64,000 nt of DNA, taken from positions 1-64,000 of the forward strand of contig CAXXHO010000001.1 in NCBI GenBank assembly GCA_963667725.2, in the 5' to 3' direction. This DNA is from Treponemataceae bacterium (GTDB lineage Bacteria; Spirochaetota; Spirochaetia; Treponematales; Rectinemataceae). Both the position numbers and the translations under genes were made by a program. Shown in pieces: positions 8,678 to 34,236 of the stretch. How positions within the stretch are numbered: the stretch's first letter is position 1; each line of letters opens with the position of its first letter. Under the pieces are notes generated by a model. That model worked only from the letters and a program-made list of their open reading frames with translations, searched no databases and was not told the DNA's origin.

Positions 8678-9239
8678 GTTAGGTCAATTTTCGTTTTTTG
8701 CCTTAACACCTTTGCAGCTATCAAGATACATGCCATGGCAAAAGCAATACTTATGCTAAAGGCTCTGTCTTTCATCGTGCATAGAACATATTTCTTCAGA
8801 CATAAGCTTCTATTATCTTGATCTTCAATCTTGACCTATTTCTCTTTTCCACTGCTTCAATCTTTCTTAAACAATATTTACCTTTATTTTCTTCGTTTTT
8901 TGAAGCAAGAAATATTCTCTTCTCCGTATACTTTGTATAATGAAGAATACAAGAACAGATCGCAATCGTAAGCAAGCTTACATTTTATCTGTTCTTGTAT
9001 TCTTCAATAGTACATTGTGTATGGTTTGCCCATTTTTCTTGGATCAATGCTTTAAGAAAATATTCCAAAATTGTTCTTTCTGTAGAATTTAGACAGGATA
9101 CTATTCAGGATAATTGAAAGCCATACTAAGTTTGCCGTTGAAGTAAGCACCATGAAAGCTGGTATCAAGCACGGGATTATGATCTTCCATGCCAATCACA
9201 CGTTGCCGTAGTGCGCCGCGTCAGCGGCGTCGACCTAAC
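8678..9239 (-). repeat. 562-bp cassette without a long ORF, copy at array position 29
   Basis: Near-identical to four other cassettes; no ORF of 60 aa or more; internal 20-bp inverted repeat. Confidence 0.9.
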
Positions 9240-9382
9240 ATTGGCTTAACCCTTAACGCGTACATTGGCGTGGTTTGTGCTTCGCGAACGCAGTGAGCTG
9301 CACAAACCATGACAATAGCGTTATAGGGTTGAAGCATGTGTTGGGTGTCTTATCTTATCTTTCTTTAATAAATACATTTATT

Positions 9383-9835
9383 CTAAATCTCTTTTCTCAT
9401 ACACACACTATATTCCATTCCCTTATATTGCCAATAATTATCTATTATTACATACATCAAACTTTTGTAAAGGCTTATTGCTGGTATAAATGTTTTACTT
9501 GTCTCTAGTAGTAATGTCTTTATATTTTTCTCTTTCGCTATGGCTTCTATTTTTTTCATCATTATTCTTGCTATCCCTGCTTTTCTATATTCTTTCTTTA
9601 CATATACTCTTTTTACTTCAAAAACATTCTCTTCAAGCTTTTTTATTGAAGCACAACCAATTGGCTTCATATTATCATAAGCAATAATTATATCTCTAAT
9701 TCCATCAAGCTTATTATATCTATTATATTGATTTTGAATTGACCCATTTTTTTCAAGAAACTCTAAATCCAATTCATTTGTTAACGAAATGAAATCTTCA
9801 TTTACTTCAGTAAAGTATTTATAAGTTATGTTCAT
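9383..9835 (-). CDS. GNAT acetyltransferase
   Basis: EVKRVYVKKEYRKAGIA motif. Confidence 0.9.
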   Translation of the reverse strand: MNITYKYFTEVNEDFISLTNELDLEFLEKNGSIQNQYNRYNKLDGIRDIIIAYDNMKPIGCASIKKLEENVFEVKRVYVKKEYRKAGIARIMMKKIEAIAKEKNIKTLLLETSKTFIPAISLYKSLMYVIIDNYWQYKGMEYSVCMRKEI

Positions 9836-10130
9836 TATGATCTTCCTATCCGCGCGCGCAGCGTCCACCCAACATTGGCTTAACCCTTAACGCGTACATT
9901 GGCGCGGTTTGTGCTTGCGAGCGAAGCAAGCTGCACAAACCGTGACAATAGCGTTATAGGGTTGAAGCAGGTGTTAGAAATCTTCTTTTACCATTATTAC
10001 TACATGCTGCATTTCATCAAAACATGAGTAAACTATTCTCTTGATAAGCTTTAATTCTCTTAACAATAGTACTTTCTTACATTCTCTTTATCTTTCTTAA
10101 CCAAAATCCTTTCCCTCTTCTCTTTCTTAA

Positions 10131-10478
10131 CTAAAGAACATCTTCTTTCCTAACATATTGTAGATAATCATCTCTTCTTGGACTAAATACTTCTAATGCT
10201 ACTGAGTCTTCAAGTATTTCTGCCTTATGCCTTACATTCGATTCAATATTCCAACTATCTCCTGGTTTTAGGTCTTTTGGCCTTCCATCAATAAAAAGCC
10301 GTATTGATCCTTTTACCAAGTAGCCTGTTTGTTCAGGAACATGATTATGTTCTGGAAGTACAGCACCTTTAGTAAGCATAAATTCTACCATTATTGAATT
10401 TGTGCCATAATTGAGAGACTTTATGCTTATTCCAGGTAGTATCTCTTTATAACCAGCATCTGAAGAAACACCAAACAT
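10131..10478 (-). CDS. Cupin domain protein (copy 1 of 3)
   Basis: PEHNHVPEQTGY...H cupin motifs. Confidence 0.9.
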   Translation of the reverse strand: MFGVSSDAGYKEILPGISIKSLNYGTNSIMVEFMLTKGAVLPEHNHVPEQTGYLVKGSIRLFIDGRPKDLKPGDSWNIESNVRHKAEILEDSVALEVFSPRRDDYLQYVRKEDVL

Positions 10479-10731
10479 ATGAACTCCACTAAATTGAACT
10501 TATTGAAACGAGATCTTATCTTCCTGCGCGGGAGCGTCTTTCTAACATTGGCTTAACCTTTAAATCCGCGCCTGAGCTACTGCGAGGGCTTGGCGTGGTT
10601 TGTGCTCTTCGTTTCTTGCACAAACCATGACAAAGGATTTATAAGGTTGAAGCATTTGTTAGACTTGACATTTGACTTTTACACACATACTATATACATA
10701 TATTATATATTTACTCTATCAGGAGGTTCTT

Positions 10732-10977
10732 ATGCTTGCACTTTATAATCGTAACGCTCCCAAAAAACCCACGAACCTTACTATTAACAGTGATTTACTC
10801 ATTAAGGCAAAAGAACTTAAGATAAATATATCATCGGTCCTAGAACAAGCTCTTGCTGAAAGACTTAAGCAGACTCAAAAAGATGAATGGCTAATGGAAA
10901 ATTCTGAATCTATCGCAAGCTATAACGAGCATATTGAGCAATTTGGTATTTTTAGCGATACAGTAAGGACATTCTAA
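10732..10977 (+). CDS. ccdA: CcdA family antitoxin
   Basis: AGGAGG RBS; KKPTNLTINSDLL...INIS...WLMEN...YNEHIEQFGIFSD. Confidence 0.9.
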   Translation: MLALYNRNAPKKPTNLTINSDLLIKAKELKINISSVLEQALAERLKQTQKDEWLMENSESIASYNEHIEQFGIFSDTVRTF

Positions 10978-11294
10978 TGGCACAATTCGATCTCTATTCA
11001 AACACTAACCACGTAACTAAAGCCATATATCCTTATCTTCTTGATGTTCAATCACCTTTGCTTGATTCTCTAGACACAAGGCTTGTAATACCATTAGCCC
11101 TAACTTCAAGATTTAAGGAAAAGGCTATAAAAAACTTGACTCCAGAAATTACAATCAAAGGGCATACTTATCTAGTTTTGACGCCACAAATGGCAGCTAT
11201 TAGTAAGAAAAGCCTTGGAATCTTTATCATGGATCTAGCAAGCAGCCGTACCACTATTATCTCGGCGATTGATTTCCTAATTACGGGATTTTAA
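10977..11294 (+). CDS. ccdB: CcdB family toxin
   Basis: MAQFDLY...PYLLDVQS.LL...TRLVIPL...AIDFLITGF; 1-nt overlap with ccdA; inverted cassette. Confidence 0.92.
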   Translation: MAQFDLYSNTNHVTKAIYPYLLDVQSPLLDSLDTRLVIPLALTSRFKEKAIKNLTPEITIKGHTYLVLTPQMAAISKKSLGIFIMDLASSRTTIISAIDFLITGF

Positions 11295-11389
11295 CTTTCT
11301 AAGTCTAACATTGGCTTAACCCTTAACGCGTACATTGGCGCGGTTTGTGCTTGCGAGCGAAGCGAGCTGCACAAACCGTGACAATAGCG

Positions 11390-12136
11390 TTATAGGGTTG
11401 AAGCAGGTGTTAGGATTCTTTTCTTAAGGTAATCTTCAATACTATAGAACTGTACTTCTTTAGCATCTTTAAGCAACGTAAAGAATATTGATCTATGCTC
11501 TACTCCAGCCAATACTACAGTAACAGCACCATCAACAGCTAACTTCTTGATATTTTCACACATACCTAGGTTTCTTGTATCCCAAAACTCAAGATACTTT
11601 CTACAAAACTCACTAAACTGAACTAGCTTGTCATTATTTGGCACAACTTCTGTGTAAAGTCGCTTAAGCAATTTCTCTTTATGTTCATTTACCCTATCAA
11701 AACGCGTACTATTGATATCATTCCATTTGCCATTATCTAATATCTCATCTCTCATGCCAAAGTACTTATTACTTTTTTCAATGATTACCCTTTGCCTATA
11801 TGTTAAGTCTTTACTTTTAATAAGGTTATCTATAGACAAAAATAGCGTATCTTCATTCTCTACAAGGTTCAAATCATGAACATACTTTTGCCTATCATGA
11901 ATATCATACGGTACTACTTTTATTCCATATTCCTTTGAATATGAATCAACGGCATACTCTTCCTGGCTTTCATAGTTACGCTGGATAATTCTCTTTCCAA
12001 ACTCATCATAAAAGCTATCAGGAAGCTCCTCTAGTATTAATGCTGGCTTTACTTCTTTTATAATGCTCAACAAATCATACTTTGAGTATGCTTTAGTAGG
12101 TCTATGAATAGTCCCAATAATTACTACTGTTTTCAT
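11390..12136 (-). CDS. Hypothetical protein (TraB/GumN-like motifs); C-terminus reads into attC
   Basis: IGTIH...PALILEELP...LAGVEH; ends LTPASTL inside attC. Confidence 0.6.
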   Translation of the reverse strand: MKTVVIIGTIHRPTKAYSKYDLLSIIKEVKPALILEELPDSFYDEFGKRIIQRNYESQEEYAVDSYSKEYGIKVVPYDIHDRQKYVHDLNLVENEDTLFLSIDNLIKSKDLTYRQRVIIEKSNKYFGMRDEILDNGKWNDINSTRFDRVNEHKEKLLKRLYTEVVPNNDKLVQFSEFCRKYLEFWDTRNLGMCENIKKLAVDGAVTVVLAGVEHRSIFFTLLKDAKEVQFYSIEDYLKKRILTPASTL

Positions 12137-12439
12137 TTTTTTTTGCGCCGCGCTAGCGGCGTCATCCTAACATTAGCTTAACCCTTAACGCGTACATTGG
12201 CGCGGTTTGTGCTTGCGAGCGAAGCGAGTTGCACAAACCGTGACAATAGCGTTATAGGGTTGAAGCAGGTGTTAGAAATCTTCTTTTACCATTATTACTA
12301 CATGCTGCATTGCTTCAAAACATGAGTAAATTATTCTCTTGATAAGCCTTAAGCAATCTTAGTTTCTCTTAACAATTGAACCTTCTTACATTCTCTTCAT
12401 CTTTCTTAACCAAAATCCTTTTCGTCTTCTCTTTCTTAA

Positions 12440-12787
12440 CTAAAGAACATCTTCTTTCCTAACATATTGTAGATAATCATCTCTTCTTGGGCTAAACACT
12501 TCTATCGCTATTGAATCTTCAAGTATTTCTGCCCTATGCCTTATATTTGATTCAATATTCCAACTATCTCCAATTTTGAGGTCTTGTGACTTTCCATCAA
12601 TAAAAAGCCGTATTGATCCATTTACCAAGTAGCCTGTTTGTTCAGGAACATGATTATGTTCTGGAAGTATGGCACCTTTAATAAGCCTAAATTCTACCAT
12701 TATTGAGTTTGTGCCATAATTAAGAGACTTTATGCTTATTCCAGGGATAATTTCTTTATAACCAGCATCTGAAGAAACGCCAAACAT
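12440..12787 (-). CDS. Cupin domain protein (copy 2)
   Basis: Paralog of 10131-10478. Confidence 0.9.
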   Translation of the reverse strand: MFGVSSDAGYKEIIPGISIKSLNYGTNSIMVEFRLIKGAILPEHNHVPEQTGYLVNGSIRLFIDGKSQDLKIGDSWNIESNIRHRAEILEDSIAIEVFSPRRDDYLQYVRKEDVL

Positions 12788-12988
12788 ATGAACTCCATCC
12801 TACTGAACTTATGAAAACGAGATTCTTATTATCTTCTCTTCCTGCGCGGGAGCGTCTTTCTAACATTAGCTTAACCCTTAACGCGTACATTGGCGCGGTT
12901 TGTGCTTGCGAGCGAAGCGAGTTGCACAAACCGTGACAATAGCGTTATAGGGTTGAAGCATGTGTTAGATTTCTTCTTTTATAACTAC

Positions 12989-13480
12989 TTACAATAACTT
13001 CTCATATGCTACAAAGTCTGTATCGTAAGCATGAACTACACCTAAGTCTTTATATCCCATTCTTTTATAAAGTCTATTTGCAGCCTTGTTTACTTCGGCA
13101 GCTAAATGATGTGTTGCTTTATATCCTTTCTCTTTTGCTACAATACTAATACTCTTCATCATCTTTTCCCCAATACCTTCGCCCTGGTATTCAGGAGCAA
13201 CACACAATCTTACAAGAAAACATGATCTTACTCTTTCCCAACCAAGATCCTTTATTTCTTCTGGTTCATCTTCAACTATAGATATTGAAGCTATGATTTT
13301 ATCTTGATCTTCAAGTACGTATAATCCTTTATTCTTAATGTCTTCTGATATGATTTCTTTATTTGGATAGTCTTCATCCCAATCTGAAGTATCATCAATC
13401 TTTCCTTTAGCCTTTGCAGCATCGAACATGCTATTGATGTAATTGATGTCTTCAATTGATGCTAATCTAAAACTTTGCAC
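12989..13480 (-). CDS. GNAT acetyltransferase
   Basis: LVRLCVAPEYQGEGIG; paralog at 24930. Confidence 0.9.
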   Translation of the reverse strand: MQSFRLASIEDINYINSMFDAAKAKGKIDDTSDWDEDYPNKEIISEDIKNKGLYVLEDQDKIIASISIVEDEPEEIKDLGWERVRSCFLVRLCVAPEYQGEGIGEKMMKSISIVAKEKGYKATHHLAAEVNKAANRLYKRMGYKDLGVVHAYDTDFVAYEKLL

Positions 13481-13661
13481 TTTTAATCCTTATATTACAG
13501 CAAAACTCAATCAGTAATCTTATTTCCTGCCCGGAGGGTCAATCTAACATTAGCTTAACCCTTAACGCGTACATTGGCGCGGTTTGTGCTTGCGAGCGAA
13601 GCGAGCTGCACAAACCGTGACAATAGCGTTATAGGGTTGAAGCAGGTGTTGGGCAGGTTAT

Positions 13662-14402
13662 TTAAAATTGATTACTGTAACAATTTTTACAAAGTGGTTT
13701 ATTCATACTGGTTTCTTTCGTTTGCCCACAAATATGACAGTACTTTTCTACAAAATCAGGATTACTCCAATAACTATAGCTTTGGTAACATTCTTTACAG
13801 TATGGTGCATTAGGATTTAAATCGATTTCTATACCACATCTTATACAGTATCCTGCAATACTTTTCTTATATACATTTTTACTACTTTTAACGTCATTTT
13901 TAACTTTTTCGTTTTTTCTACTTTTAGCATATCTTCCGGGTATCGATATTTCAGAGTTGATGCCAAATATGTCTTTATCAATAACAATTTCTTTTATCTT
14001 ATTTACCTCATCTTTTCTATTAATCTTATACCCAATTTCATAATTAAACTCTTTTGATGAATCGTACAAGTTCATCGATGATATAATGGCAGACTTTTCA
14101 TTTAGATACAATTTTGTATGTAATCTATCCACAAAATGGATATCAAAACCACTTTCTTTCAATCTGTCTATTTGATCTATACTTACATCATTAGTTCGAA
14201 ATACAAATATGATTTTTTTTTCTAGCTTTGCAGCTTTATCAAGAGCTCTTTGTAGTATTGGCCAAGGTTTATAATATGGGGTAATTAAAAAGCAATACTC
14301 TTTTGCATCTTCAATTAAATTTATTATTTCACCTGTTATTTGATGAATCGTTAATACATTGTATAGTTCCACTTTGTACTCCAATGTAGGTAAAAAATTC
14401 AC
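13662..14402 (-). CDS. Phospholipase D/Nuc-like protein with a C-terminal Cys-rich (Zn-ribbon) region
   Basis: LHTKLYLNE...SSMNL (HKD-like motif); four CxxC pairs. Confidence 0.8.
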   Translation of the reverse strand: MNFLPTLEYKVELYNVLTIHQITGEIINLIEDAKEYCFLITPYYKPWPILQRALDKAAKLEKKIIFVFRTNDVSIDQIDRLKESGFDIHFVDRLHTKLYLNEKSAIISSMNLYDSSKEFNYEIGYKINRKDEVNKIKEIVIDKDIFGINSEISIPGRYAKSRKNEKVKNDVKSSKNVYKKSIAGYCIRCGIEIDLNPNAPYCKECYQSYSYWSNPDFVEKYCHICGQTKETSMNKPLCKNCYSNQF

Positions 14403-14553
14403 GCTTAGCCTTTACTCTGCCCAACATTGGCTTAACCTTTAAATCCGCGCCTGAGCGTAGCGAAGGCTTGGCGTGGTTTGTGCATTGTTGTTCCTGCACA
14501 AACCATGACAAAGGATTTATAAGGTTGAAGCAGTTGTTCTATGTCTTTTCTTA

Positions 14554-15336
14554 CTAAATACTTTTAAATAATTTAAGTAATGATTTTTTCAAGCAACCTG
14601 AATTTGTAGCTCTAATATACTTATTTGTTTTTACTGCTTTTTCCAACCCTATAATCTTTAAATTTCTTTCTGGTGACCAAATGCCTGGTATATTGTGGTC
14701 AATACAAAATAATGGGCTACCACTAATTCCTTCTAAAGTAGGTACTTTTTCAAGTTTTCCATTTACCATTATTTCTTCTTTATATTCAAATACTATATCA
14801 ACACTCTTATTATAATTATCAACTATTGAAAAATCACCTTTATATATTTTTGTAATAAATTCCAAAGAGCCAATTCTAATATTCGGATCTCCGTATAAAT
14901 CTTTTTGCATTTCCCTTGGGAATCCATTAACAAACACTGCTTGATTATCATATATTGTCTTGCCATCGTAGAAAGAATCAATGTAAAATGGTTTCCAAAA
15001 CATTCTATTTAGTAATTCTTCTTCATATAACAACGGAACTACTGCAAAATCAGCACCTGAATCGTCTTTTGAAAAGTATGGAAAATATGGTAATGAATAA
15101 GCTTCTTTATTTTGACCAAATATTGGAAAAGCAAATTTTTTGTATTCTATGTCTTTAGTTTCTTCCAAGACATGCCTGGCAGTAATAAGATAATTTACAT
15201 TATTATAATATATAATGAAACCTGTTCCCCTTACGAAAGCACTTTCCTGAGATATCATATACATAATCGGGAAAACTCTTTCATTTATATAGTGATGGCA
15301 TGCCTCAAGCATTATAGAATCTTCATAGTATAGCAT
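14554..15336 (-). CDS. Trypsin-like serine protease domain protein
   Basis: GTGF...LITARHVL...DFAVV...GISGSPLF. Confidence 0.75.
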   Translation of the reverse strand: MLYYEDSIMLEACHHYINERVFPIMYMISQESAFVRGTGFIIYYNNVNYLITARHVLEETKDIEYKKFAFPIFGQNKEAYSLPYFPYFSKDDSGADFAVVPLLYEEELLNRMFWKPFYIDSFYDGKTIYDNQAVFVNGFPREMQKDLYGDPNIRIGSLEFITKIYKGDFSIVDNYNKSVDIVFEYKEEIMVNGKLEKVPTLEGISGSPLFCIDHNIPGIWSPERNLKIIGLEKAVKTNKYIRATNSGCLKKSLLKLFKSI

Positions 15337-15458
15337 CAATATTCCTCCGCCCGAAGGGTCCATAGAACATTGGCTTAACCTTTAAATCCGCGCCTGAGCG
15401 TAGCGAAGGCTTGGCGTGGTTTGTGCATTGTTGTTCTGCACAAACCATGACAAAGGAT

Positions 15459-16049
15459 TTATAAGGTTGAAGCTTTTGTTAGATTTCTGACTTTCTCTTT
15501 TATTGTTTGATCTATTATATTATCGATAAGCCACTTGATTTGAGTCTCATTCATCTTTTTAGAAGCATTTACTATATCTTTACAATCTTTATCATTAAGC
15601 TCTTTTGTCTTATACAGTAAGACTGCTTCAGGACATAAATAAGGAATACGCTCTTCAGTAAACTGTATCACTTTTTTTTCATCAAGCTTGATCTCTTTAT
15701 CCCGCCTATAAATCCAATTATCTTCATCTCTCTCATTCAATAGTATTTCTAGTTCCAATCCTTTATATTCAACATATATTTCATGTATTGGCAGCTGAAG
15801 ATACTCTTTATTCCATTCTTTCTTTTCATGCTTCCCAATTCTGCTCTTGTTATTAATAAAGTATTTCTTACTACTTTCAAAGTACCGATATAGATGCATT
15901 TGATGCTTCCTATATATCCCAATTTCAATATCACTATGAACTCGTGTTTCCTTATCCAGGAATAGATCAATTGCCCAACCACCAGCAATGAACCAAGGAT
16001 AACCGAATTTATCCATTATACTTTTAACTTTTATACATTGATCAAACAT
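15459..16049 (-). CDS. Nucleotidyltransferase of the aminoglycoside-2''-adenylyltransferase/Lnu-like family
   Basis: WFIAGGWAIDLFL...RVHSDIEI...PEAVLLYK...KDCKD. Confidence 0.8.
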   Translation of the reverse strand: MFDQCIKVKSIMDKFGYPWFIAGGWAIDLFLDKETRVHSDIEIGIYRKHQMHLYRYFESSKKYFINNKSRIGKHEKKEWNKEYLQLPIHEIYVEYKGLELEILLNERDEDNWIYRRDKEIKLDEKKVIQFTEERIPYLCPEAVLLYKTKELNDKDCKDIVNASKKMNETQIKWLIDNIIDQTIKEKVRNLTKASTL

Positions 16050-16237
16050 ACACGCTCCTAAACTCTCACTTCAAACTTTGCATGTCATTAAAGATACTAT
16101 TTCTCCCTGGCGCGGAGCGCTCAATCTAACATTGGCTTAACCGGTAATTCCGCGCCCGAAGGGCTTGGCGCGCAGTTTGCTAACGAGCGCAGCGAGCGCA
16201 AACTGCGTGACAAAGGAATTATCCGGTTGAAGCAGTT

Positions 16238-16799
16238 GTTAGGTCAATTTTCGTTTTTTGCCTTAACACCTTTGCAGCTATCAAGATACATGCCATGGCA
16301 AAAGCAATACTTATGCTAAAGGCTCTGTCTTTCATCGTGCATAGAACATATTTCTTCAGACATAAGCTTCTATTATCTTGATCTTCAATCTTGACCTATT
16401 TCTCTTTTCCACTGCTTCAATCTTTCTTAAACAATATTTACCTTTATTTTCTTCGTTTTTTGAAGCAAGAAATATTCTCTTCTCCGTATACTTTGTATAA
16501 TGAAGAATACAAGAACAGATCGCAATCGTAAGCAAGCTTACATTTTATCTGTTCTTGTATTCTTCAATAGTACATTGTGTATGGTTTGCCCATTTTTCTT
16601 GGATCAATGCTTTAAGAAAATATTCCAAAATTGTTCTTTCTGTAGAATTTAGACAGGATACTATTCAGGATAATTGAAAGCCATACTAAGTTTGCCGTTG
16701 AAGTAAGCACCATGAAAGCTGCTATCAAGCACGGGATTATGATCTTTTCTGCCAATCACACGTTGCCGTAGTGCGCCGCGCTAGCGGCGTCGACCTAAC
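16238..16799 (-). repeat. 562-bp cassette without a long ORF, position 19
   Basis: Copy of 8678-9239. Confidence 0.9.
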
Positions 16800-17606: not shown

Positions 17607-18915
17607 TGTACACATCAGGGACATCGTTTACAAAACCTCAAGGACATCGTTTACACATTAAACTATGCTTTTCCTAGGGGGAAAGCATATGCCTTGGAGG
17701 AATACAACGATTATGGACGAGAAATACTTCTTCATCAATGAGTACCTGGCTCACAGACATACAATAACAGAACTCTGTAAGCAGTTTGGAATATCCCGAA
17801 CCCTGGGGTACAAATACATTGAACGCTTTAACCACATGGGTTTTACCGGGCTTAATGAGCTTTCAAGAAAGCCTAAATCATGCCCTACTAAAACACCCGT
17901 AAGAATTGCCAAGAACATAATTTCAATACGAAACAAGCATCCTCGATACGGTGCTGATAAAATCAAAACCATACTCGAAAGGGATATGCCAGATATGCAG
18001 TGGCCATCTCAAACGACAATTCATACAATCTTAAAAATCGAAGGGCTAATACCCGAGAGGAAAACCAACCGCCATATCTATCCCTGTAATCCAAAGTTTG
18101 ACCCCAAAGAAATAAACGATATGTGGGGCATTGATTACAAGGGAAAAATGCGATTGATTAATGCAGTATATTCATATCCCCTTACTATTACCGATTCATT
18201 TTCCCGTTTTATTTTGGCTGCTGATGCTCTTGCAAGTCCCACTACAGAAGCTACAAAAGCAGTATTTATAAGGGTTTTCGAGGACTTTGGCTTGCCGAAT
18301 TATATTCACAGCGATAATGGAGTGCCTTTTGCAGGATCAACATCATTGGCTCGCTTATCAAGTCTCTCTGTATGGTTCATTGAACTTGGTATTATGCCTG
18401 TGTACTCGGATCCTGCTAAGCCCGGTCAAAATGGCAGACATGAACGAATGCATAAAGAATTAAAAGCAGAAACGGCAAGTCCATTACCAAGATCTCATAA
18501 TGAGTTACAGAAACGCTTAAATGCTTTTATTAAAGAGTACAATGAATACCGTCCTCATCAAGCGCTTAATAATAACACACCAGCAAGCATCTATAAACGA
18601 TCAGAACGTGTATATCCTCAAAGTATTGAACCGTGGGATTATCCTGGAGCGTTCGAAGTTAAAAGAGTTCTGAAGAATGGTGCTATACGCTGGGGTAATC
18701 ATAACTGGATAATGGTTGCTACACCGCTTATTGGCAAAGACATTGGTCTCGAAGAAATCAGCGATGGCCTTTTTCGCGTCTATTTTAGGTTCAAGCTCCT
18801 TGGATATCTTGACGCCAGAAAACTAAGAATACAAGATATACAAGGACGCTTGAAGCGACAATAAAAGTGTAAACGATGTCCTTGTAGTTTTGTAAACTAT
18901 GTCCTAGTTAGTACA
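17607..18915 (+). mobile_element. IS481-family IS, copy 2 (target duplication CTAT)
   Basis: Same length and identical protein to copy 1; CTAT duplicated on both flanks. Confidence 0.93.
17689..18864 (+). CDS. IS481-family transposase
   Basis: Identical translation to 4464-5639. Confidence 0.93.
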   Translation: MPWRNTTIMDEKYFFINEYLAHRHTITELCKQFGISRTLGYKYIERFNHMGFTGLNELSRKPKSCPTKTPVRIAKNIISIRNKHPRYGADKIKTILERDMPDMQWPSQTTIHTILKIEGLIPERKTNRHIYPCNPKFDPKEINDMWGIDYKGKMRLINAVYSYPLTITDSFSRFILAADALASPTTEATKAVFIRVFEDFGLPNYIHSDNGVPFAGSTSLARLSSLSVWFIELGIMPVYSDPAKPGQNGRHERMHKELKAETASPLPRSHNELQKRLNAFIKEYNEYRPHQALNNNTPASIYKRSERVYPQSIEPWDYPGAFEVKRVLKNGAIRWGNHNWIMVATPLIGKDIGLEEISDGLFRVYFRFKLLGYLDARKLRIQDIQGRLKRQ

Positions 18916-21626: not shown

Positions 21627-21796
21627 TTTCATAACTCCATTTGCAGCTATTTTGTTTGCGCGCGCGAAGCGCGTCTGCCTAACATTGGCTTAAGCTGGGA
21701 GCTTCGACCGCGAAGCGGTTGGCGCGCTTTTTGCGTAAAGGAGCGTAGCGACACGCAAAAAGCGTGACAAAGAAGCGACTCAGCTTGAAGCAGTTG

Positions 21797-22570
21797 TTAG
21801 GTTTCTGCTTTTTTTATGAAACATGTAATAGCTTCAATTAATAATCCTAAGAAAACTAAAGTTATTAAGTTTTGAACAATGATAAGAATTCTTGCTATAC
21901 TTGTTATTGGCAGAATATCACCAAATGTCATTGTTGTTGCAATACCTGCACTTAGGTACAGCATTCTAAAAAACTCGCCAGATAAGTTTTTAGGGAAACC
22001 TTTATAGGCATCACCTAATCCGATTATCTTTGTATAAATCTTTTTATCGATTTCTATAAATCCATTTGGTTTGCTATCAAATACTGAATTGTAATTGAAG
22101 ATCTGCAAAACATTGTTAGTAATAAACACATTATTATTTTCATGTGATTTAAGTAGGAATAATTTATTATCTGTTATTAAATAAGTTTTTAGATTTAATA
22201 CTAAAGAATCATTAAAGCCCATACCATTAATTAAACCTGCTTCATTCTTGTATTCAAATGAGAAGAAATACTTTAGAATTATTTCGTTTGGATACTTGGT
22301 TAAAGATATGTCATTAACCCGAAAATCAACAATCTTAATATTGTTAGGAAGATTCTTTAATAAAACATCCGATAACTGTTTCGTTAATACTGTTGTTATT
22401 TCAATAACATCCTTATTAAAACTACTATTTTCATATTGCACTGTTGAATGGTAAAAACTTTCTTGTGGTAGTATCCTATAGATTGCTGCAAACAGAACAA
22501 TGCTACAAATATATAAAAATAATATTATCAAAATTTTGTTTCTAAAGAGATATATAATATTTTTCAACAT
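21797..22570 (-). CDS. Two-TM ion-channel-domain protein
   Basis: YLSAGIATTMTFGDILP pore-like motif. Confidence 0.7.
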   Translation of the reverse strand: MLKNIIYLFRNKILIILFLYICSIVLFAAIYRILPQESFYHSTVQYENSSFNKDVIEITTVLTKQLSDVLLKNLPNNIKIVDFRVNDISLTKYPNEIILKYFFSFEYKNEAGLINGMGFNDSLVLNLKTYLITDNKLFLLKSHENNNVFITNNVLQIFNYNSVFDSKPNGFIEIDKKIYTKIIGLGDAYKGFPKNLSGEFFRMLYLSAGIATTMTFGDILPITSIARILIIVQNLITLVFLGLLIEAITCFIKKAET

Positions 22571-22726: not shown

Positions 22727-24035
22727 TGTACACATCAGGGACATCGTTTACAAAACCTCAAGGACATCGTTTACACATTAAACTATGCTTTTCCTAGGGG
22801 GAAAGCATATGCCTTGGAGGAATACAACGATTATGGACGAGAAATACTTCTTCATCAATGAGTACCTGGCTCACAGACATACAATAACAGAACTCTGTAA
22901 GCAGTTTGGAATATCCCGAACCCTGGGGTACAAATACATTGAACGCTTTAACCACATGGGTTTTACCGGGCTTAATGAGCTTTCAAGAAAGCCTAAATCA
23001 TGCCCTACTAAAACACCCGTAAGAATTGCCAAGAACATAATTTCAATACGAAACAAGCATCCTCGATACGGTGCTGATAAAATCAAAACCATACTCGAAA
23101 GGGATATGCCAGATATGCAGTGGCCATCTCAAACGACAATTCATACAATCTTAAAAATCGAAGGGCTAATACCCGAGAGGAAAACCAACCGCCATATCTA
23201 TCCCTGTAATCCAAAGTTTGACCCCAAAGAAATAAACGATATGTGGGGCATTGATTACAAGGGAAAAATGCGATTGATTAATGCAGTATATTCATATCCC
23301 CTTACTATTACCGATTCATTTTCCCGTTTTATTTTGGCTGCTGATGCTCTTGCAAGTCCCACTACAGAAGCTACAAAAGCAGTATTTATAAGGGTTTTCG
23401 AGGACTTTGGCTTGCCGAATTATATTCACAGCGATAATGGAGTGCCTTTTGCAGGATCAACATCATTGGCTCGCTTATCAAGTCTCTCTGTATGGTTCAT
23501 TGAACTTGGTATTATGCCTGTGTACTCGGATCCTGCTAAGCCCGGTCAAAATGGCAGACATGAACGAATGCATAAAGAATTAAAAGCAGAAACGGCAAGT
23601 CCATTACCAAGATCTCATAATGAGTTACAGAAACGCTTAAATGCTTTTATTAAAGAGTACAATGAATACCGTCCTCATCAAGCGCTTAATAATAACACAC
23701 CAGCAAGCATCTATAAACGATCAGAACGTGTATATCCTCAAAGTATTGAACCGTGGGATTATCCTGGAGCGTTCGAAGTTAAAAGAGTTCTGAAGAATGG
23801 TGCTATACGCTGGGGTAATCATAACTGGATAATGGTTGCTACACCGCTTATTGGCAAAGACATTGGTCTCGAAGAAATCAGCGATGGCCTTTTTCGCGTC
23901 TATTTTAGGTTCAAGCTCCTTGGATATCTTGACGCCAGAAAACTAAGAATACAAGATATACAAGGACGCTTGAAGCGACAATAAAAGTGTAAACGATGTC
24001 CTTGTAGTTTTGTAAACTATGTCCTAGTTAGTACA
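22727..24035 (+). mobile_element. IS481-family IS, copy 3 (target duplication CTTT)
   Basis: Same length and protein as the other copies; CTTT duplicated. Confidence 0.93.
22809..23984 (+). CDS. IS481-family transposase
   Basis: Identical translation to 4464-5639. Confidence 0.93.
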   Translation: MPWRNTTIMDEKYFFINEYLAHRHTITELCKQFGISRTLGYKYIERFNHMGFTGLNELSRKPKSCPTKTPVRIAKNIISIRNKHPRYGADKIKTILERDMPDMQWPSQTTIHTILKIEGLIPERKTNRHIYPCNPKFDPKEINDMWGIDYKGKMRLINAVYSYPLTITDSFSRFILAADALASPTTEATKAVFIRVFEDFGLPNYIHSDNGVPFAGSTSLARLSSLSVWFIELGIMPVYSDPAKPGQNGRHERMHKELKAETASPLPRSHNELQKRLNAFIKEYNEYRPHQALNNNTPASIYKRSERVYPQSIEPWDYPGAFEVKRVLKNGAIRWGNHNWIMVATPLIGKDIGLEEISDGLFRVYFRFKLLGYLDARKLRIQDIQGRLKRQ

Positions 24036-25421: not shown

Positions 25422-25588
25422 AATTAATCCTTATATTGCCGTAATACTCGAGCATAACTCTTATTTCCTGCCCGGAGGGTCAATCTAACATTAGCTTAAC
25501 CCTTAACGCGTACATTGGCGCGGTTTGTGCTTGCGAGCGAAGCGAGTTGCACAAACCGTGACAATAGCGTTATAGGGTTGAAGCAGTT

Positions 25589-26150
25589 GTTAGGTCAATT
25601 TTCGTTTTTTGCCTTAACACCTTTGCAGCTATCAAGATACATGCCATGGCAAAAGCAATACTTACGCTAAAGGCTCTGTCTTTCATCGTGCATAGAACAT
25701 ATTTCTTCAGACATAGGCTTCTATTATCTTGATCTTCAATCTTTACCTATTTCTCTTTTCCACTGCTTCAATCTTTCTTAAACAATATTTACCTTTATTT
25801 TCTTCGTTTTTTGAAGCAAGAAATATTCTCTTCTCCGTATACTTTGTATAATGAAGAATACAAGAACAGATCGCAATCGTAAGCAAGCTTACATTTTATC
25901 TGTTCTTGTATTCTTCAATAGTACATTGTGTATGGTTTGCCCATTTTTCTTGGATCAATGCTTTAAGAAAATATTCCCAAATTGTTCTTTCTGTAGAATT
26001 TAGACAGGATACTATTCAGGATAATTGAAAGCCATACAAAGTTTGCCGTTGAAATAAGCACTATGAAAGCTGCTATCAAGCACGGGATTATGATCTTCCA
26101 TGCCAATCACACGTTGCCGTAGTGCACCGCGTCAGCGGCGTCGACCTAAC
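25589..26150 (-). repeat. 562-bp cassette without a long ORF, position 11
   Basis: Copy of 8678-9239, but attached to a different attC type. Confidence 0.9.
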
Positions 26151-27590: not shown

Positions 27591-27914
27591 TCAATAAAAC
27601 TCGATGTTAGTTTTCTCTAGATAATCAACCACTTTCCCTGTGTGCAACGCATAATCGATTTCACTTCTCGTTGAAGTGCCGATATATCCTCCAACGTTTA
27701 TTACGAATATTCCGTCTGACATATCTATCTTTCGCTTGTGCATATCATCAAGCATAATTTTTTGTTCTTTATTAATAACTTCATTATCATTATCAAAAAA
27801 ATCAACAGACAAAACAATTTTCCCTTCTAGCGTCAAACGTTTCTGTTGTTCTATAAAATGCTTACCAAACTTCATACTTCCACAAAGTGTTATTACCGCA
27901 TATTTACCAATCAT
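27591..27914 (-). CDS. Nucleoside 2-deoxyribosyltransferase/DUF4406-like small protein
   Basis: ITLCGSMKF...HKRKIDMSD...GGYIGTSTRSEIDYA. Confidence 0.65.
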   Translation of the reverse strand: MIGKYAVITLCGSMKFGKHFIEQQKRLTLEGKIVLSVDFFDNDNEVINKEQKIMLDDMHKRKIDMSDGIFVINVGGYIGTSTRSEIDYALHTGKVVDYLEKTNIEFY

Positions 27915-28521: not shown

Positions 28522-28884
28522 TTAGGGTGAGTAACTTATTTTAAAACCATATAAAAAGATTACCTGAAATTCTATATCTCTCTTAGAGGAAAGCACAACA
28601 GAAATTTCTTTTTCAGTGAGCCAGTTTACATCAATGATATTATCATATTTTGCAGTATAAAATGGTACTGTATTTCTCTTCAGTTTTAAATCAGTTCGTA
28701 ATAGATATAGTTTCACAATCTGGCTAGTTGCAGTTCCAGCCCCTGTAGAAACCTTTATAATCTTAAACATACCAGATGGAGAGAACTGTGTATCAATAAT
28801 ACTAGTCTCAACAACAGAACATCCACTAGTGATAATCAAGAATAGCATAAGTATTCTAATAACCACTTTATTTATGTTTTGCAT
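28522..28884 (-). CDS. Lipoprotein, DUF5412-like; candidate immunity protein
   Basis: TSGC lipobox, SPSG...GAGTATS, W at DVNWL; follows a toxin remnant. Confidence 0.6.
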   Translation of the reverse strand: MQNINKVVIRILMLFLIITSGCSVVETSIIDTQFSPSGMFKIIKVSTGAGTATSQIVKLYLLRTDLKLKRNTVPFYTAKYDNIIDVNWLTEKEISVVLSSKRDIEFQVIFLYGFKISYSP

Positions 28885-29049
28885 ATTAATTCCTTGTATT
28901 ATCCAATATGCATCTTAGGGGTCATTACCATAGGATAGATTTTTACTTAATGGTCCTCAATAAAAACTTTCACGTGTTGGATCTGCATCTACACTGGCCT
29001 AACCAGTTCCACGTAATAGAACCTATACTAGTATACAAAGAGTTGTATC
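28885..29049 (-). pseudogene. Decayed C-terminal fragment of a polymorphic toxin (Ntox44-like)
   Basis: Translates TLCILV*VLLRGTG*A...*GP...SYGNDP*DAYWIIQGIN. Confidence 0.6.
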
Positions 29050-29249
29050 TTTTATTAATTACAAGTTTAATACTTCTATAAAAAGCTTTATTAATATAAC
29101 TATAATCGTTTAATAATTATAGCGCGATAGCGCCCGCCTAACATTGGCTTAACCGGTAATTCCGCGCCCAAAGGGCTTGGCGCGCAGTTTGCTAACGAGC
29201 GCAGCGAGCGCAAACTGCGTGACAAAGGAATTATCCGGTTGAAGCAGTT

Positions 29250-29811
29250 GTTAGGTCAAACTTCGTTTTTTGCCTTAACACCTTTGCAGCTATCAAGATA
29301 CATGCCCTGGTAAAAGCAATACTTACGCTAAAGGCTCTGTCTTTCATCGTGCATAGAACATATTTCTTCAGACATAGGCTTCTATTATCTTGATCTTCAA
29401 TCTTTACCTATTTCTCTTTTCCACTGCTTCAATCTTTCTTAAACAATATTTACCTTTATTTTCTTCGTTTTTTGAAGCAAGAAATATTCTCTTCTCCGTA
29501 TACTTTGTATAATGAAGAATACAAGAACAGATCGCAATCGTAAGCAAGCTTACATTTTATCTGTTCTTGTATTCTTCAATAGTACATTGTGTATGGTTTG
29601 CCCATTTTTCTTGGATCAATGCTTTAAGAAAATATTCCCAAATTGTTCTTTATAAAGAATTTAGACAGGATACTATTCAGGATAATTGAAAGCCATACTA
29701 AGTTTGCCGTTGAAATAAGCACCATGAAAGCTGCTATCAAGCACGGGATTATGATCTTTTCTGCCAATCACACGTTGCCGTAGTGCGCCGCGCCAGCGGC
29801 GTCAACCTAAC
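29250..29811 (-). repeat. 562-bp cassette without a long ORF, position 7
   Basis: Copy of 8678-9239. Confidence 0.9.
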
Positions 29812-29925
29812 ATTAGCTTAACCCTTAACGCGTACATTGGCGCGGTTTGTGCTTGCGAGCGAAGCGAGTTGCACAAACCGTGACAATAGCGTTATAGGGT
29901 TGAAGCAGGTGTTAGCTTTCTTCTC

Positions 29926-30303
29926 CTATGGCTCAAACCTTTTGATCTCTATATTTGGTATATATTTATAATGCTTATCATTCGCAGTTAATAACGTCTC
30001 TCCCATCTGTACAATTGTAGCTGCTATCAATGCATCCCCAAGCATCATCGAATGACTCAATGAATACTCTTGTATATAGAATATGGCCCTTGATGAAATC
30101 TCGCGATCTATCTGTACTATTTCGGTTTCCCACCGCTGCATCTGTTTCTGAAATATTCGATACTCTTCTTTATTCTTCATCCCCTGCAATAGTTCCATAT
30201 ACGTAACAGCAGACATTTTAAAAGGAACAGAACTCTCGACTACTTTTTTAGCTTTTTCATTGCCACGTAAGTACCATATTAGGACATCAGTATCGATAAT
30301 CAA
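29926..30303 (-). CDS. vapC: VapC PIN-domain toxin
   Basis: IIDTDVLI...ELLQG...DALIAAT...LLTANDKHY. Confidence 0.92.
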   Translation of the reverse strand: MIIDTDVLIWYLRGNEKAKKVVESSVPFKMSAVTYMELLQGMKNKEEYRIFQKQMQRWETEIVQIDREISSRAIFYIQEYSLSHSMMLGDALIAATIVQMGETLLTANDKHYKYIPNIEIKRFEP

Positions 30304-30539
30304 AATGTCCTCCCTTTTCTTAACCCCCGTACAACATCTTCGACACTTTTATCTTCTTTATGTTCTTTCCACATTCCAAAGATACTTTCTTCGTTTTCTA
30401 CCATCTTTCGTCTCTTTTCCAAAGGTACAATCTTAGCTAATTCTTTCCCACGGAATGTAATAGTTACCTCTTGCCCGCCAACAACATGATCAATGATCTT
30501 ACCGGGTTGTATCCTTAACTCTTTAGTAGTCACTTTCAT
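30300..30539 (-). CDS. Phd/YefM family antitoxin
   Basis: VTTKELR...GQEVTITFRGKELAKIVP; ATGA overlap with vapC; operator-like palindrome TGTAGTGTA...TACACTACA at 30551-30580. Confidence 0.9.
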   Translation of the reverse strand: MKVTTKELRIQPGKIIDHVVGGQEVTITFRGKELAKIVPLEKRRKMVENEESIFGMWKEHKEDKSVEDVVRGLRKGRTF

Positions 30540-30736
30540 AATCAGCTCCTTGTAGTGTACACTCTACAGTATACACTACAAACCTATACAATGCAAGGTT
30601 ACTACTTTTCTTCCTGCGCGGGAGCGTCAAGCTAACATTGGCTTAACCCTTAACGCGTACATTGGCGCGGTTTGTGCTTGCGAGCGAAGCGAGTTGCACA
30701 AACCGTGACAATAGCGTTATAGGGTTGAAGCATGTG

Positions 30737-31393
30737 TTAGGTTTCTTCTTGCTTAACAATGGAATAATATTTTTCTAGTTTAACTTTTTGCATATTGTAT
30801 AAATTATTCATATACTTCACACTAAGCCATCCAAATATTATAACAGTAATTAATTCCATATAATATATGATATTTATTGAAGGCATGTTGATGTTTTTTA
30901 TTATATTCACAATCCCTAATACTATATTTACTATAAATAATGTATCATATAGTATCACAAAGATTACTAAATAAACATTTCTTTTCGGATTTACTTCGCT
31001 TGAATACTCTTTTAGCAAATCACCTAGAAATCTATATGGGTAAATCAAATTAGCTATAGGGGTTATCAGCGAAATAATAAAAAACTCAGGATAATATTGT
31101 GTCTTTACTAATAATGTTTTTTCTAAGTGATAATATGATAGATATATATATCGTAATCCATCTCTAATCATGAAAGCTGATGTAATAATTATCGTAAATA
31201 TTCCAATTAATAAGAAGACAGAATCACGAATACTATTGGCATCATGTATTTGATTAATGTTATCTGTAGCATTTCCAATAATTGATAAAATAGTTATTAA
31301 TGCTGATATACCAACAAGTAGTAAATAAGCATAATTTATTCTTTTTCGTATACGCCTTAACACTTCAAGTAGAATTATCATGTATTTCTCCAT
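30737..31393 (-). CDS. Membrane protein, DUF4328-like
   Basis: Four hydrophobic segments, PIANLIYPY motif. Confidence 0.6.
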   Translation of the reverse strand: MEKYMIILLEVLRRIRKRINYAYLLLVGISALITILSIIGNATDNINQIHDANSIRDSVFLLIGIFTIIITSAFMIRDGLRYIYLSYYHLEKTLLVKTQYYPEFFIISLITPIANLIYPYRFLGDLLKEYSSEVNPKRNVYLVIFVILYDTLFIVNIVLGIVNIIKNINMPSINIIYYMELITVIIFGWLSVKYMNNLYNMQKVKLEKYYSIVKQEET

Positions 31394-31714
31394 TTTTTAC
31401 TGATTACTATTATAAGAGCAGCTTCGCATTACCAGAAAACTATAATAAAACCTATCTTATTTGCGCCGAAGGCGTCAACCTAACATTAGCTTAACCCTTA
31501 ACGCGTACATTGGCGCGGTTTGTGCTTACGAGCGAAGCGAGTTGCACAAACCGTGACAATAGCGTTATAGGGTTGAAGCAGGTGTTAGGCAATTTTTTCA
31601 TTTATCAGCATTTACCCTATTTCCATACATATGGCATATTACACACTATCATAAAGCATTATTTATTTTTAATATAATATATTTCGTTATACTAAAACTT
31701 TTTAAAACAATACA

Positions 31715-32161
31715 TTAGGACTTCATAAGAACTAGATTCTTAATCCCATTAATATCGAATTCTTCTCTATACTTTTCTTCAGCTATTTCATGCTTTACTT
31801 CCAACTCTTCTTCAGGCATCTTCCTATACTCTTTTTCTCCAATCTCTTGAATAATGTCTCTTTGGCCTAACCTAAAAAGAAGTTCTTGCCAAAATGTTTC
31901 TTCAACAAAGTCATCAAAATCATCTCCAAATGCCTTTTCTGCAGCTTCTGTTAACTCATACTCATTTGTTGATTGATTGAATTCAATACCTCTAAAAGCC
32001 TTTGCCATCTTTGTAGAAAGTAATACTTTCTGAACAAGGCTATTTATAACTTTATCTTCAGCATCATCCTTGGGGACAACAATAAAAGTACCTGAGTACA
32101 ACAACTTAAGGAAAAGCCCAACCTCTTCTTTAGCGAAAGTAATGCTAATATCGTTTGCCAT
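31715..32161 (-). CDS. Hypothetical protein (paralog of 21180-21626)
   Basis: Near-identical duplicate. Confidence 0.8.
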   Translation of the reverse strand: MANDISITFAKEEVGLFLKLLYSGTFIVVPKDDAEDKVINSLVQKVLLSTKMAKAFRGIEFNQSTNEYELTEAAEKAFGDDFDDFVEETFWQELLFRLGQRDIIQEIGEKEYRKMPEEELEVKHEIAEEKYREEFDINGIKNLVLMKS

Positions 32162-32362
32162 TTCAATACTCCATTTGCAGTAATTATGATTGCGCGCGCG
32201 AAGCGCGTCTGCCTAACATTGGCTTAACCCTTAACGCGTACATTGGCGCGGTTTGTGCTTGCGCGCGATGCGAGCTGCACAAACCGTGACAATAGCGTTA
32301 TAGGGTTGAAGCAGGTGTTGGGCGTATTTTCTGATAAAAACATATAACTTATTTCACTTTGC

Positions 32363-32848
32363 CTAAGTTACTACCTTTAACTCTCTTTCTACATAAGAAT
32401 TGTACCCATTCTTATAATAAAAGCTTTTTGCCTTTTCATTAAAACTATACACTGGTATTTCTATACTACTAATATTCTTTATCTTTGCTTCTTCTTCTAT
32501 TAACTCAAGCATTTTCTTTCCTATACCATGATTCCTATATTCTTCTTTGATTATTAAATCTGTTAACATTATCATATCTCTTTCTTTTACAAATAATGAC
32601 TCTTCAATATTCTTATATCGTCCTTTCATATACCCAATGACTTTTTTATCAATAGTAACAACATAAAAGTAATCGAATTCACATATATCATTTTTGATTT
32701 CATCTAAATCTACTTTTTTCTCACTCGTAAATATATTTGGTAGCTTTACAGCATGAAGATTCATTAGTTCAAGATAAAGTGGTTCTATCTCTTTCGCATC
32801 ATCAGCTTCAGCTTTTCTAATTTGAATGTCTACTTCAGCCTTTGCCAT
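32363..32848 (-). CDS. GNAT acetyltransferase
   Basis: EEYRNHGIGKKML...NEKAKSFYYKNGY. Confidence 0.9.
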   Translation of the reverse strand: MAKAEVDIQIRKAEADDAKEIEPLYLELMNLHAVKLPNIFTSEKKVDLDEIKNDICEFDYFYVVTIDKKVIGYMKGRYKNIEESLFVKERDMIMLTDLIIKEEYRNHGIGKKMLELIEEEAKIKNISSIEIPVYSFNEKAKSFYYKNGYNSYVERELKVVT

Positions 32849-33081
32849 TACTATTCTTTGTCCCCCGCGCGCGTAAAGCGCGTCCGCCCAACATTAGCTT
32901 AACCCTTAACGCGTACATTGGCGCGGTTTGTGCTTACGAGCGAAGCGAGTTGCACAAACCGTGACAATAGCGTTATAGGGTTGAAGCAGGTGTTGGGCGT
33001 TCTTGCAATATTTCTTTGCCAATTAAAGCTTAATAATCAATTTGTCTTCTTATTGTAAGTATATTAAAACCATCTACTCTA

Positions 33082-33510
33082 TTACACGAATATTGAATAT
33101 CCCTTTGCAATAAATATCTTGCCGTTTAAAGAATAGTATTTCCAATTATCGTTTCCTGCAGAAGTTGATATAATTTGTAGAATAAATTGATCTTCAAACT
33201 CTATATCAATATCTCCTGTACTTTCTAGAATTTTACACTTTACTATCTTTAAACCTACTAATTCACTTAATGCTTTAATACCATCGAATTGTCTTTCTAA
33301 ATAAAATACTTTTCCATGATCTTCACTAGTTGAACAAAGGTTATCATCATCAATAAGTCTCCACAGTCCTAATATTTCAAGTCTTGAATTATCAACAAAT
33401 TGAATTTCCCATGTATTACAATTATCACATTTTACTCTACAAATAGTTGTAGCTTCAATGCTTTTTGAAATTTCTATATAAGCAGCTTCATCCCACATAT
33501 AATACCTCAA
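33082..33510 (-). CDS. Hypothetical protein
   Basis: ORF fills the cassette. Confidence 0.65.
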   Translation of the reverse strand: MRYYMWDEAAYIEISKSIEATTICRVKCDNCNTWEIQFVDNSRLEILGLWRLIDDDNLCSTSEDHGKVFYLERQFDGIKALSELVGLKIVKCKILESTGDIDIEFEDQFILQIISTSAGNDNWKYYSLNGKIFIAKGYSIFV

Positions 33511-33674
33511 TATATAATACTATCTCACATTTGAATAATTACTTAACGCCAAAGGCGTCCGCCCAACATTGGCTTAACCGGTAATTCCGCGCCCAAAGGG
33601 CTTGGCGCGCAGTTTGCTAACGAGCGCAGCGAGCGCAAACTGCGTGACAAAGGAATTATCCGGTTGAAGCAGTT

Positions 33675-34236
33675 GTTAGGTCAATCTTCGTTTTTTGCCT
33701 TAACACCTTTGCAGCTATCAAGCTATATGCCATGGCAAAAGCAATACTTACGCTAAAGGCTCTGTCTTTCATCGTGCATAGAACATATTTCTTCAGACAT
33801 AGGCTTCTATTATCTTGATCTTCAATCTTTACCTATTTCTCTTTTCCACTGCTTCAATCTTTCTTAAACAATATTTACCTTTATTTTCTTCGTTTTTTGA
33901 AGCAAGAAATATTCTCTTCTCCGTATACTTTGTATAATGAAGAATACAAGAACAGATCGCAATCGTAAGCAAGCTTACATTTTATCTGTTCTTGTATTCT
34001 TCAATAGTACATTGTGTATGGTTTGCCCATTTTTCTTGGATCAATGCTTTAAGAAAATATTCCCAAATTGTTCTTTCTATAGAATTTAGACAGGATACTA
34101 TTTAGGATGATTGAAAGCCATACAAAGTTTGCCGTTGAAATAAGCACTATGAAAGCTGGTATCAAGCACGGGATTATGATCTTCCATGCCAATCATACGT
34201 TGCCGTAGTGCGCCGCGTCAGCGGCGTCGACCTAAC
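33675..34236 (-). repeat. 562-bp cassette without a long ORF, first cassette at attI
   Basis: Copy of 8678-9239, directly abutting attI. Confidence 0.9.

Follow-up and report, generated by a model that had tools for sequence, protein, structure and literature searches.

The 64,000-nt stretch analysed here (hereafter the window; positions 1-64,000 of contig CAXXHO010000001.1 of a Treponemataceae bacterium) contains a chromosomal integron that is read on the minus strand, and five 562-bp repeats within it, named sub-family F1, are genuine mobile gene-less integron cassettes, each moving as one unit. No coding signal is present in them, and they share a hairpin that is conserved with covariation and a sense-strand bias, and is under selection for pairing. 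My tentative reading, held with somewhat less than even confidence, is that F1 is a non-coding cassette mobilised by the integron integrase (IntI), and that the cargo under selection would be an RNA hairpin of the sense strand with a cis effect on the transcript of the array. All five copies lie on the minus strand downstream of the integrase gene intI:

33563-34236, minus strand: F1 copy 1, first after attI; body 33675-34236 plus a 119-nt attC at 33563-33681
29138-29811, minus strand: F1 copy at array position 7; body plus its own attC
25487-26150, minus strand: F1 copy at array position 11; F1 body with the attC replaced by the type of the neighbouring cassettes
16126-16799, minus strand: F1 copy at array position 19; body plus its own attC
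8564-9239, minus strand: F1 copy at array position 29; body plus its own attC
33831-34063 (in copy 1), minus strand: segment that is invariant among the five F1 copies, alignment columns 157-389

The first-pass annotation of this DNA had reported five 562-bp copies with an invariant centre and without an open reading frame (ORF) of 60 aa or more, and all of this was confirmed: the bodies align without gaps, differ pairwise at 6-20 of 562 positions and are 96-98% identical to copy 1, columns 157-389 contain no variable column, and the longest ORF measures 50 aa in copy 1 and 59 aa in any F1 copy with the attC included. On the minus strand the 562 bp open with the R' box GTTAGGT and close with the R'' box ACCTAAC, and therefore correspond to the cassette body, with the attC beyond it; complete F1 cassettes measure 664-676 bp, and the attC of every copy (107-119 nt) ends in GTTRRRY. 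Array positions 1, 7 and 11 agree with the attC list, while positions 19 and 29 hold only if one attC was missed before each. For position 19 there is an attC-like match at 21681-21815 that is absent from the list; for position 29 the missed attC is inferred from two ORFs in a 1.7-kb gap (14419-16124) and was not located.

The repeats show what defines integron gene cassettes: crossover bounds and an attC of their own, a place in an array beside intI and attI, and movement as a unit. The F1 body occurs five times in the 4.22-Mb genome, always inside the window, and the sequences flanking the five copies are unrelated except for the attCs, so the copies must have been inserted one by one and not by segmental duplication. 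Four of the five copies have one common 119-nt attC and the copy at position 11 has a different type that is shared with nearby cassettes. There the local type has taken the place of the attC (25487-25595) while the body was retained as far as the R''/L'' boxes, which makes body and attC modules that can be separated. The 119-nt attC is 80% identical to the attCs of two other sub-families, F3 and F5 (see below), and 67-73% identical to the local types, and these identities suggest that it may have been imported from another integron pool, that of F3 and F5. This attC, initially described as private to four copies, is so within the window but not genome-wide, related attCs (86-87% identity) being present on contig C5. 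A contig from RNA-library run X19 (window 33572-33694) joins the end of a different cassette with an F1-type attC to an F1 start, and the F1 attC type is therefore not private to F1 elsewhere. Among the five copies the site patterns are mosaic, and the left arm of F1 is less AT-rich than the remaining body.

The hairpin lies inside the invariant segment of the body:

33939-34004, minus strand: conserved hairpin of copy 1, with a 20-bp lower stem, an internal loop, a 5-bp upper stem and a CUUG loop
29514-29579, 25853-25918, 16502-16567 and 8942-9007, minus strand: the same element in the other F1 copies

Its parts recur in all six sub-families (F1-F6) of a wider cassette family: 17-22 pairs form the lower stem, a purine-rich internal loop follows, and an upper stem of 5-8 pairs is capped by a loop of four bases. 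Covariation was counted on distinct sequences only, omitting four of the window copies, one contig C5 copy, L037 and L040 as identical, and also L034. In 12 distinct sequences, 8 of the 20 lower-stem pairs have changed on both sides and 97.5% of the cells are paired, a level reached by 0 of 500 shuffles, with slid partners pairing at 36-53%. This count was restricted to the lower stem, since the upper stem of F6 does not align in register; over both stems, 10 distinct sequences gave 9 of 25 pairs changed on both sides (three of them among the five upper-stem pairs) with 97.6% of the cells paired. The first 10-11 pairs of the lower stem (GAAGAAUWC...) are nearly invariant. The structured RNA that the first-pass annotation had listed among its options is supported by these compensatory pairs in a hairpin common to six sub-families, together with the following signs of a sense-strand preference.

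G-U pairs occur on the sense strand at three pair positions (5 cells), and read as A-C mismatches on the opposite strand. The folding energy of the sense strand is lower by 1.5-4.2 kcal/mol in five of the six sub-families and tied in one. CUUG is a stable RNA tetraloop, and the apical loop on the sense strand reads CUUG in F1, F3, F5, F6 and one F2 variant, and CUGG in F2 and F4; one or the other is kept in all six sub-families even though the underlying stem has been replaced. The hairpin does not resemble a second attC: its stem base reads TTGAAGAAT, no core site is present, and the 20-bp stem is perfect. Nor is it a canonical Rho-independent terminator: it has an AU-rich stem and, read in either direction, no U-rich tail. 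An Rfam search yielded no family at the gathering threshold, with only one chance match (in intI) for window positions 1-36000 and only look-alikes of miRNA precursors (24-34 bits against thresholds of 64-103) for five loci with F1-F6 copies.

The hairpin of ~67 nt is the only body sequence that the six sub-families share. F2, a 610-bp cassette with two copies on contig C5, was reached through a weak self-match of F1, and the only parts common to F1 and F2 are a GC-rich mini hairpin at the 5' end and the central palindrome, while their arms are 24-40% identical without gaps, about the level of random sequences. BLAST with the F1 and F2 bodies gave no match in 40 relatives and none in 80 IntI-bearing loci from other genomes, and the relatives emerged instead from pattern and covariance-model searches. 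An exact pattern recovered eight loci in metagenome contigs, six with F2 and two with F1, one of the latter also holding F4, which was found beside the F1 copy with hairpin covariance models. The covariance models further detected F3 in G141 (two copies), F5 in G238 (three copies) and F6 in G207 (one copy), all three genomes belonging to one genus (g64) of the same order as the window genome. Three leads were discarded: all nine hits of a first exact hairpin pattern in genome contigs were chance matches, none of them with an extended stem; L095, a weak covariance-model match (31.7 bits) in the IntI-bearing loci, is an unrelated palindromic repeat; and the spacing from cassette start to hairpin is not fixed, ranging from 119 to 299 nt across the family.

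In the window's own 4.22-Mb genome the covariance model finds seven sites only, all inside F1 or F2 cassettes, and the hairpin is therefore not a dispersed genomic repeat of the REP or MITE kind. These seven stand among about 208-212 cassettes, compared with three of at least 139 in G238. Matches were obtained in 1 of 150 other genomes in a sample of the order, 3 of 151 in the taxonomic family of the matching genomes and 3 of 27 in genus g64, and no match was found in a sample of 150 other genomes of the phylum, which, being a sample, speaks for not found rather than absent. A generalised exact pattern matched three records (G141, G238 and G207) among 185,579 species genomes, two of them Treponemataceae and Spirochaetales metagenome-assembled genomes, and gave zero matches in viral contigs. 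Of the 22 sequencing runs listed, 14 contain sequence nearly identical to F1; their sources are aquatic, freshwater, drinking-water, digester and biofloc samples. In DNA run X12 all 30 bins are covered, with the same flanks, and in X3 21 bins, the cassette alone. In metagenomes the F1 cassette is also seen in other contexts. In one metagenome contig (L041, from ~1284 onward) an F1 copy breaks off after ...GAAAGACAGAG, where an insertion sequence whose two transposase frames overlap has entered.

The cassettes stand in the following setting:

34405-35739, minus strand: intI integron integrase, a listed ORF with a family match across its last 331 aa, co-oriented with the cassettes
34237-34404, minus strand: attI region between the intI stop and the crossover GTTAGGT, with a promoter-like TTGTCA-17-TATTAT at 34289-34317

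The intI product scores 454 bits on TIGR02249 (cutoff 265). The crossover GTTAGGT lies at 34230-34236, 169 nt past the stop of the co-oriented intI, and the array starts there with copy 1 abutting attI, in agreement with its earlier placement as the first cassette. GTTAGGT is found 22 times, against 4.2 expected by chance. Contig C1 has 36 attC ends, all in one orientation, and the whole 4.22-Mb genome has ~203 attC ends by pattern, on four contigs. The GC content is 32-38% in the cassette array and 59-68% on the far side of intI (36000-64000); the array reaches the contig start, and is therefore probably longer.

The intI-attI junction is visible in five integrons, and a family member is first after attI in three of them: the window (F1), L035 (F2) and G238 (F5). 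In G207 the F6 cassette is second, behind a coding cassette, and in G141 the two F3 copies are 31 and 62 kb away, with another short cassette in the first slot. The enrichment at this slot is real but biased, because the five integrons were found through the family. The first cassette of G141 (L149 2941-3297) is ~357 bp long, is seen again beside an F3 copy, and includes a 40-codon Cys-rich ORF as read by eye; its attC type recurs 16 times among the listed attCs, often 356 bp after the preceding attC.

In the reading I tentatively favour, the integron integrase would cut F1 out as a unit at its attC and re-insert it at attI, and this IntI-driven movement would explain why there are several copies, why their neighbours are unrelated and why one copy occupies the first slot. 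The hairpin would most likely form in sense RNA when the array is transcribed, either from the promoter region by attI or by read-through from intI. Terminator-like sites with a GC-rich stem and a U tract number zero in 33400-34450, so that there is no canonical terminator between intI and cassette 1 and read-through is possible. Once formed, the hairpin may be a cis-acting, double-strand-specific element for processing, stability or insulation. All six sub-families have the shape of putative RNase III-type targets, a stem of ~20 bp or more with an internal loop, and the hairpin could segment or stop the array transcript between intI/Pc (Pc, the cassette promoter) and the cassettes behind. Its transcription, its function as RNA and its effect are what I infer from sequence. 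The early mRNA of phage T7 contains RNase III hairpins with a lower stem of about two turns, an asymmetric internal loop and an upper stem, embedded in a polycistronic transcript, and the F1-F6 hairpin, as a putative target of such cleavage, would be analogous to these in shape and polycistronic setting.

Several observations weigh against this reading. The sense-strand signs are small: only 5 cells hold a G-U pair and the energy differences amount to 1.5-4 kcal/mol. Because the hairpin is a near-perfect palindrome, a DNA hairpin or cruciform fits the covariation equally well, and only six lineages with common ancestry are known. The basal stem is conserved in sequence, which an RNase III substrate does not require, and this difference points to a specific binder. 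Each cassette RNA already has a long attC hairpin, and the need for a second processing hairpin is unexplained. The first slot of G141 is taken by another highly repeated cassette, so first-slot occupancy may reflect mobility alone, and all five integrons were selected as holders of the family. Finally, two metatranscriptome runs gave only attC-type pieces and one 64-nt fragment (92%, 5 mismatches), and these matches, with depth in 13 and 10 of 30 bins and mostly in the attC, are to assembled contigs, which cannot show transcription.

The main rival, which I regard as possible but doubtful, is a selfish, hyper-mobile cassette, and it is not mutually exclusive with an RNA acting in cis. Here the hairpin would work at the DNA level, for example by stalling replication or extruding and so keeping the flanking attCs single-stranded to fold; together with the short length of the cassette this would raise excision and re-insertion, and the cassette would multiply without benefit to the host. 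The first-pass annotation had offered such a recombinogenic cassette as one option, and much is compatible with it: the family is multi-copy in four genomes (5+2, 2, 3 and 1 copies) with different neighbours, near-identical cassettes appear in the 14 runs from several habitats, the mosaic site patterns are expected from exchange between copies, and the conserved part is not the attC, which is freely swapped. First position in three of five integrons also agrees, attI being the landing place of new insertions, and the repeated short cassette in slot 1 of G141 hints that the most repeated cassette sitting first may be general. On the other hand, the G-U pairs and the CUUG loop are on the top (sense) strand and not on the bottom strand of the attC that recombines; the copies differ by 1-3.5%, hence none is a fresh duplicate; and long perfect palindromes are usually unstable in DNA, yet this hairpin was kept across sub-families. 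I know of no mechanism in integrons by which a cargo hairpin boosts mobility in this way.

A promoter relay, another option of the first-pass annotation, in which F1 would bring an internal promoter that restarts transcription of the cassettes behind, appears improbable. There is precedent for it: most tested gene-less Vibrio cassettes had sense promoter activity (PMC11014356), and in Treponema both strands of an ORF-less cassette in first position were active as promoters (PMC6557892). F1 itself has a candidate:

33655-33684, minus strand: promoter-like TTGACC-18-GATAAT that stretches over the end of the body, R'' and attC and faces the next cassette; F1-specific and predicted from the letters only

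This motif matches the consensus at 10 of 12 positions in the F1 copies scanned and sits at the joint of body and attC, but it is absent from F2-F5 by reading of the sequences (the F6 sequence lacks its 3' end), and promoter-like matches in the array as a whole do not exceed those in shuffles (73 versus 76.3). By eye, no -10/-35 pair has a fixed place relative to the hairpin across the sub-families. A seemingly conserved antisense -10 (TATACT) beside the hairpin was rejected: F1 and F2 have it, but in F3 it is shifted and F4 lacks it. A section heading of PMC11014356 describes promoters of this kind as unidentifiable in silico.

Toxin-antitoxin cassettes are scattered through Vibrio arrays, and a small-peptide module had been proposed for F1 at first pass. 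Spelled out, F1 would be a small-peptide module or a type I toxin-antitoxin system in which a hydrophobic peptide of 47 or 38 aa is controlled by an antisense RNA and the hairpin serves as a shared bidirectional terminator, and I rate this as very unlikely. Small hydrophobic ORFs are indeed present in F1, F2 and F3, the one in F3 with a GAGGA ribosome-binding site; however, no ORF keeps its place, frame or sequence from one sub-family to the next across F1-F6, F5 has none at all outside the attC, and the conserved small hydrophobic toxin ORF that defines such systems was not found, there being no shared ORF, no purifying selection and no relatives. Coding potential was assessed on seven F1 sequences (five from the window, two from metagenomes) in 24 frame-by-region tests, and a clear synonymous excess was found in no frame. 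The best frame, antisense in the left arm, had 9 synonymous to 11 non-synonymous changes with an uncorrected P = 0.007, which is one of 24 tests, and it starts with ATG in only three of the seven members. The hydrophobic 47-aa sense ORF (34049-34192, minus strand) had a ratio of 5:15, and its F2 counterpart 0:11, with a premature stop in two of seven members that span the site and the GTG start lost in one of six full-length members.

Database searches were likewise without relatives beyond the same cassette. The 47-aa ORF had none among 1.84 billion representatives, a search with the 58-aa frame that holds the membrane-like 38-aa ORF (33656-33772, minus strand) returned none, the only match of the antisense frame was the same cassette on a metagenome contig, and Pfam gave no match at threshold. 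The zero terminator-like sites noted above also count against a shared terminator. ORFs starting from TTG or ATG at the edge of the hairpin (MKNT...) were dropped as candidates: the cross-arm frame differs between F1 and F2-F4, and in F1 it stops after 9 codons, so that their likeness is one at the nucleotide level.

That F1 is the decayed remnant of an ordinary gene cassette, a result that the first-pass annotation had named as a refutation of its reading, was checked and not borne out. This is the least credible explanation, hinted at only by the less AT-rich left arm and the weak synonymous excess in one antisense frame, and contradicted by the lack of any longer homologue of that frame in the search or Pfam hit at threshold, by a never-varying segment that is the ORF-free hairpin region, and by six-frame pieces of the F1, F2, F5 and F6 bodies not being among the 15 best of 353 matches elsewhere in the genome, those 15 being F3/F4 pieces that still contained an attC.

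In integrons with an integrase transcribed towards the array, the hairpin turns up repeatedly in the slot nearest to attI, and a broader proposal, which I consider unlikely as it stands, is that hairpin cassettes are a dedicated control module of such reverse (intI-co-oriented) integrons. As an RNA gate, they would be recruited repeatedly to the slot between intI/Pc and the array and would set the expression level of the array and of the intI mRNA; as a mobility booster, they would be the first known cassette cargo to enhance its own IntI-mediated mobility. Either form, if true, would give gene-less cassettes a function beyond promoter activity. To the question of what these cassettes do, the F1-F6 hairpin contributes a defined, testable structure, and a hairpin that gates array or integrase expression, or aids movement, would add a new layer to the running of large chromosomal integrons.

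In the covered parts of the literature, the only measured function of gene-less cassettes is promoter activity (PMC11014356, PMC6557892), and a shared structured element in them is not described there, in a search that was not aimed at it. Against this background F1-F6 appears to be a variant of already known gene-less cassettes, with the shared covarying hairpin as the distinguishing feature. One near parallel is the set of paralogous non-coding Vibrio cassettes of Boucher et al. 2006 (PMC1382264), for which selfish and integron-beneficial readings were weighed: these resemble F1 in having no ORF, no BLASTX match and several copies per array, in that only related hosts have close homologues of them, and in substitutions without a codon-like pattern. 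The host of F1 differs in being a spirochaete with a co-oriented intI, and the family here is defined by a covarying hairpin that is shared despite unrelated arms, of which the passages covered make no mention. The Vibrionaceae promoter cassettes (Blanco et al. 2024, PMC11014356) are likewise gene-less, scattered in a large sedentary array and proposed regulators of neighbouring cassettes; their function was established by reporters and 5'-RACE (rapid amplification of cDNA ends), whereas the conserved feature of F1 is a hairpin and not a promoter.

The oral Treponema cassette TMB4 (Tansirichaiya et al. 2019, PMC6557892) resembles F1 as a first-position ORF-less cassette of a reverse integron, and the report on it also states that a few ORF-less cassettes act in antisense regulation. 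Its predicted -10/-35 boxes (table S1), through which alone it was compared, were not seen by eye in the family sequences. The covariance model gave a match in 0 of 9 and 0 of 15 genomes of genus g23, whose identity with the oral treponemes is only a guess. Integron-borne small RNAs do exist, sRNA-Xcc1 of Xanthomonas being the non-coding cargo of a cassette. F1 is similar in its non-coding cargo and different in that no sequence or Rfam match links the two.

Hairpins of another kind are found at cassette starts. F1 has one at its 5' end, shared with F2 and F4:

34210-34228, minus strand: GC-rich mini hairpin, GACGCCGC-TGAC-GCGGCGC, at the 5' end of the cassette

This element is a variant of a feature on many cassettes of the window integron. 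A perfect GC-rich hairpin, with 4 or more bp and a 3-6 nt loop that is most often TTC, begins ~3 nt past the R' box in 96 of 212 cassette starts, counted over window positions 1-34236 and contigs C5 and C7, with controls inside cassettes giving 0-1 of 212, and the coding first cassette of G207 has a 5' mini hairpin too. In these integrons the mini hairpins look like a feature that the 5' ends of cassettes have at the RNA level and, being present on nearly half of the genome's cassettes, would also point to an RNA-level organisation of the array.

F1 is not alone in lacking a gene: 19 of 208 delimited cassettes in the window genome have no ORF of 60 aa or more. The first-pass description of F1 as the most repeated cassette applies to the window and fails for the genome, where contig C5 has an ORF-less cassette of ~275-299 bp in at least 8 copies (e.g. 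543547-543821, 537837-538111 and 513503-513801). A second ORF-less multi-copy family of ~365 bp is present on the same contig in 5 copies (e.g. 487049-487779 and 478487-478851). Within the window array itself, a 399-aa ORF for an rve-family transposase occurs three times (4440-5639, 17665-18864 and 22785-23984, plus strand), opposite to the strand of the cassettes.

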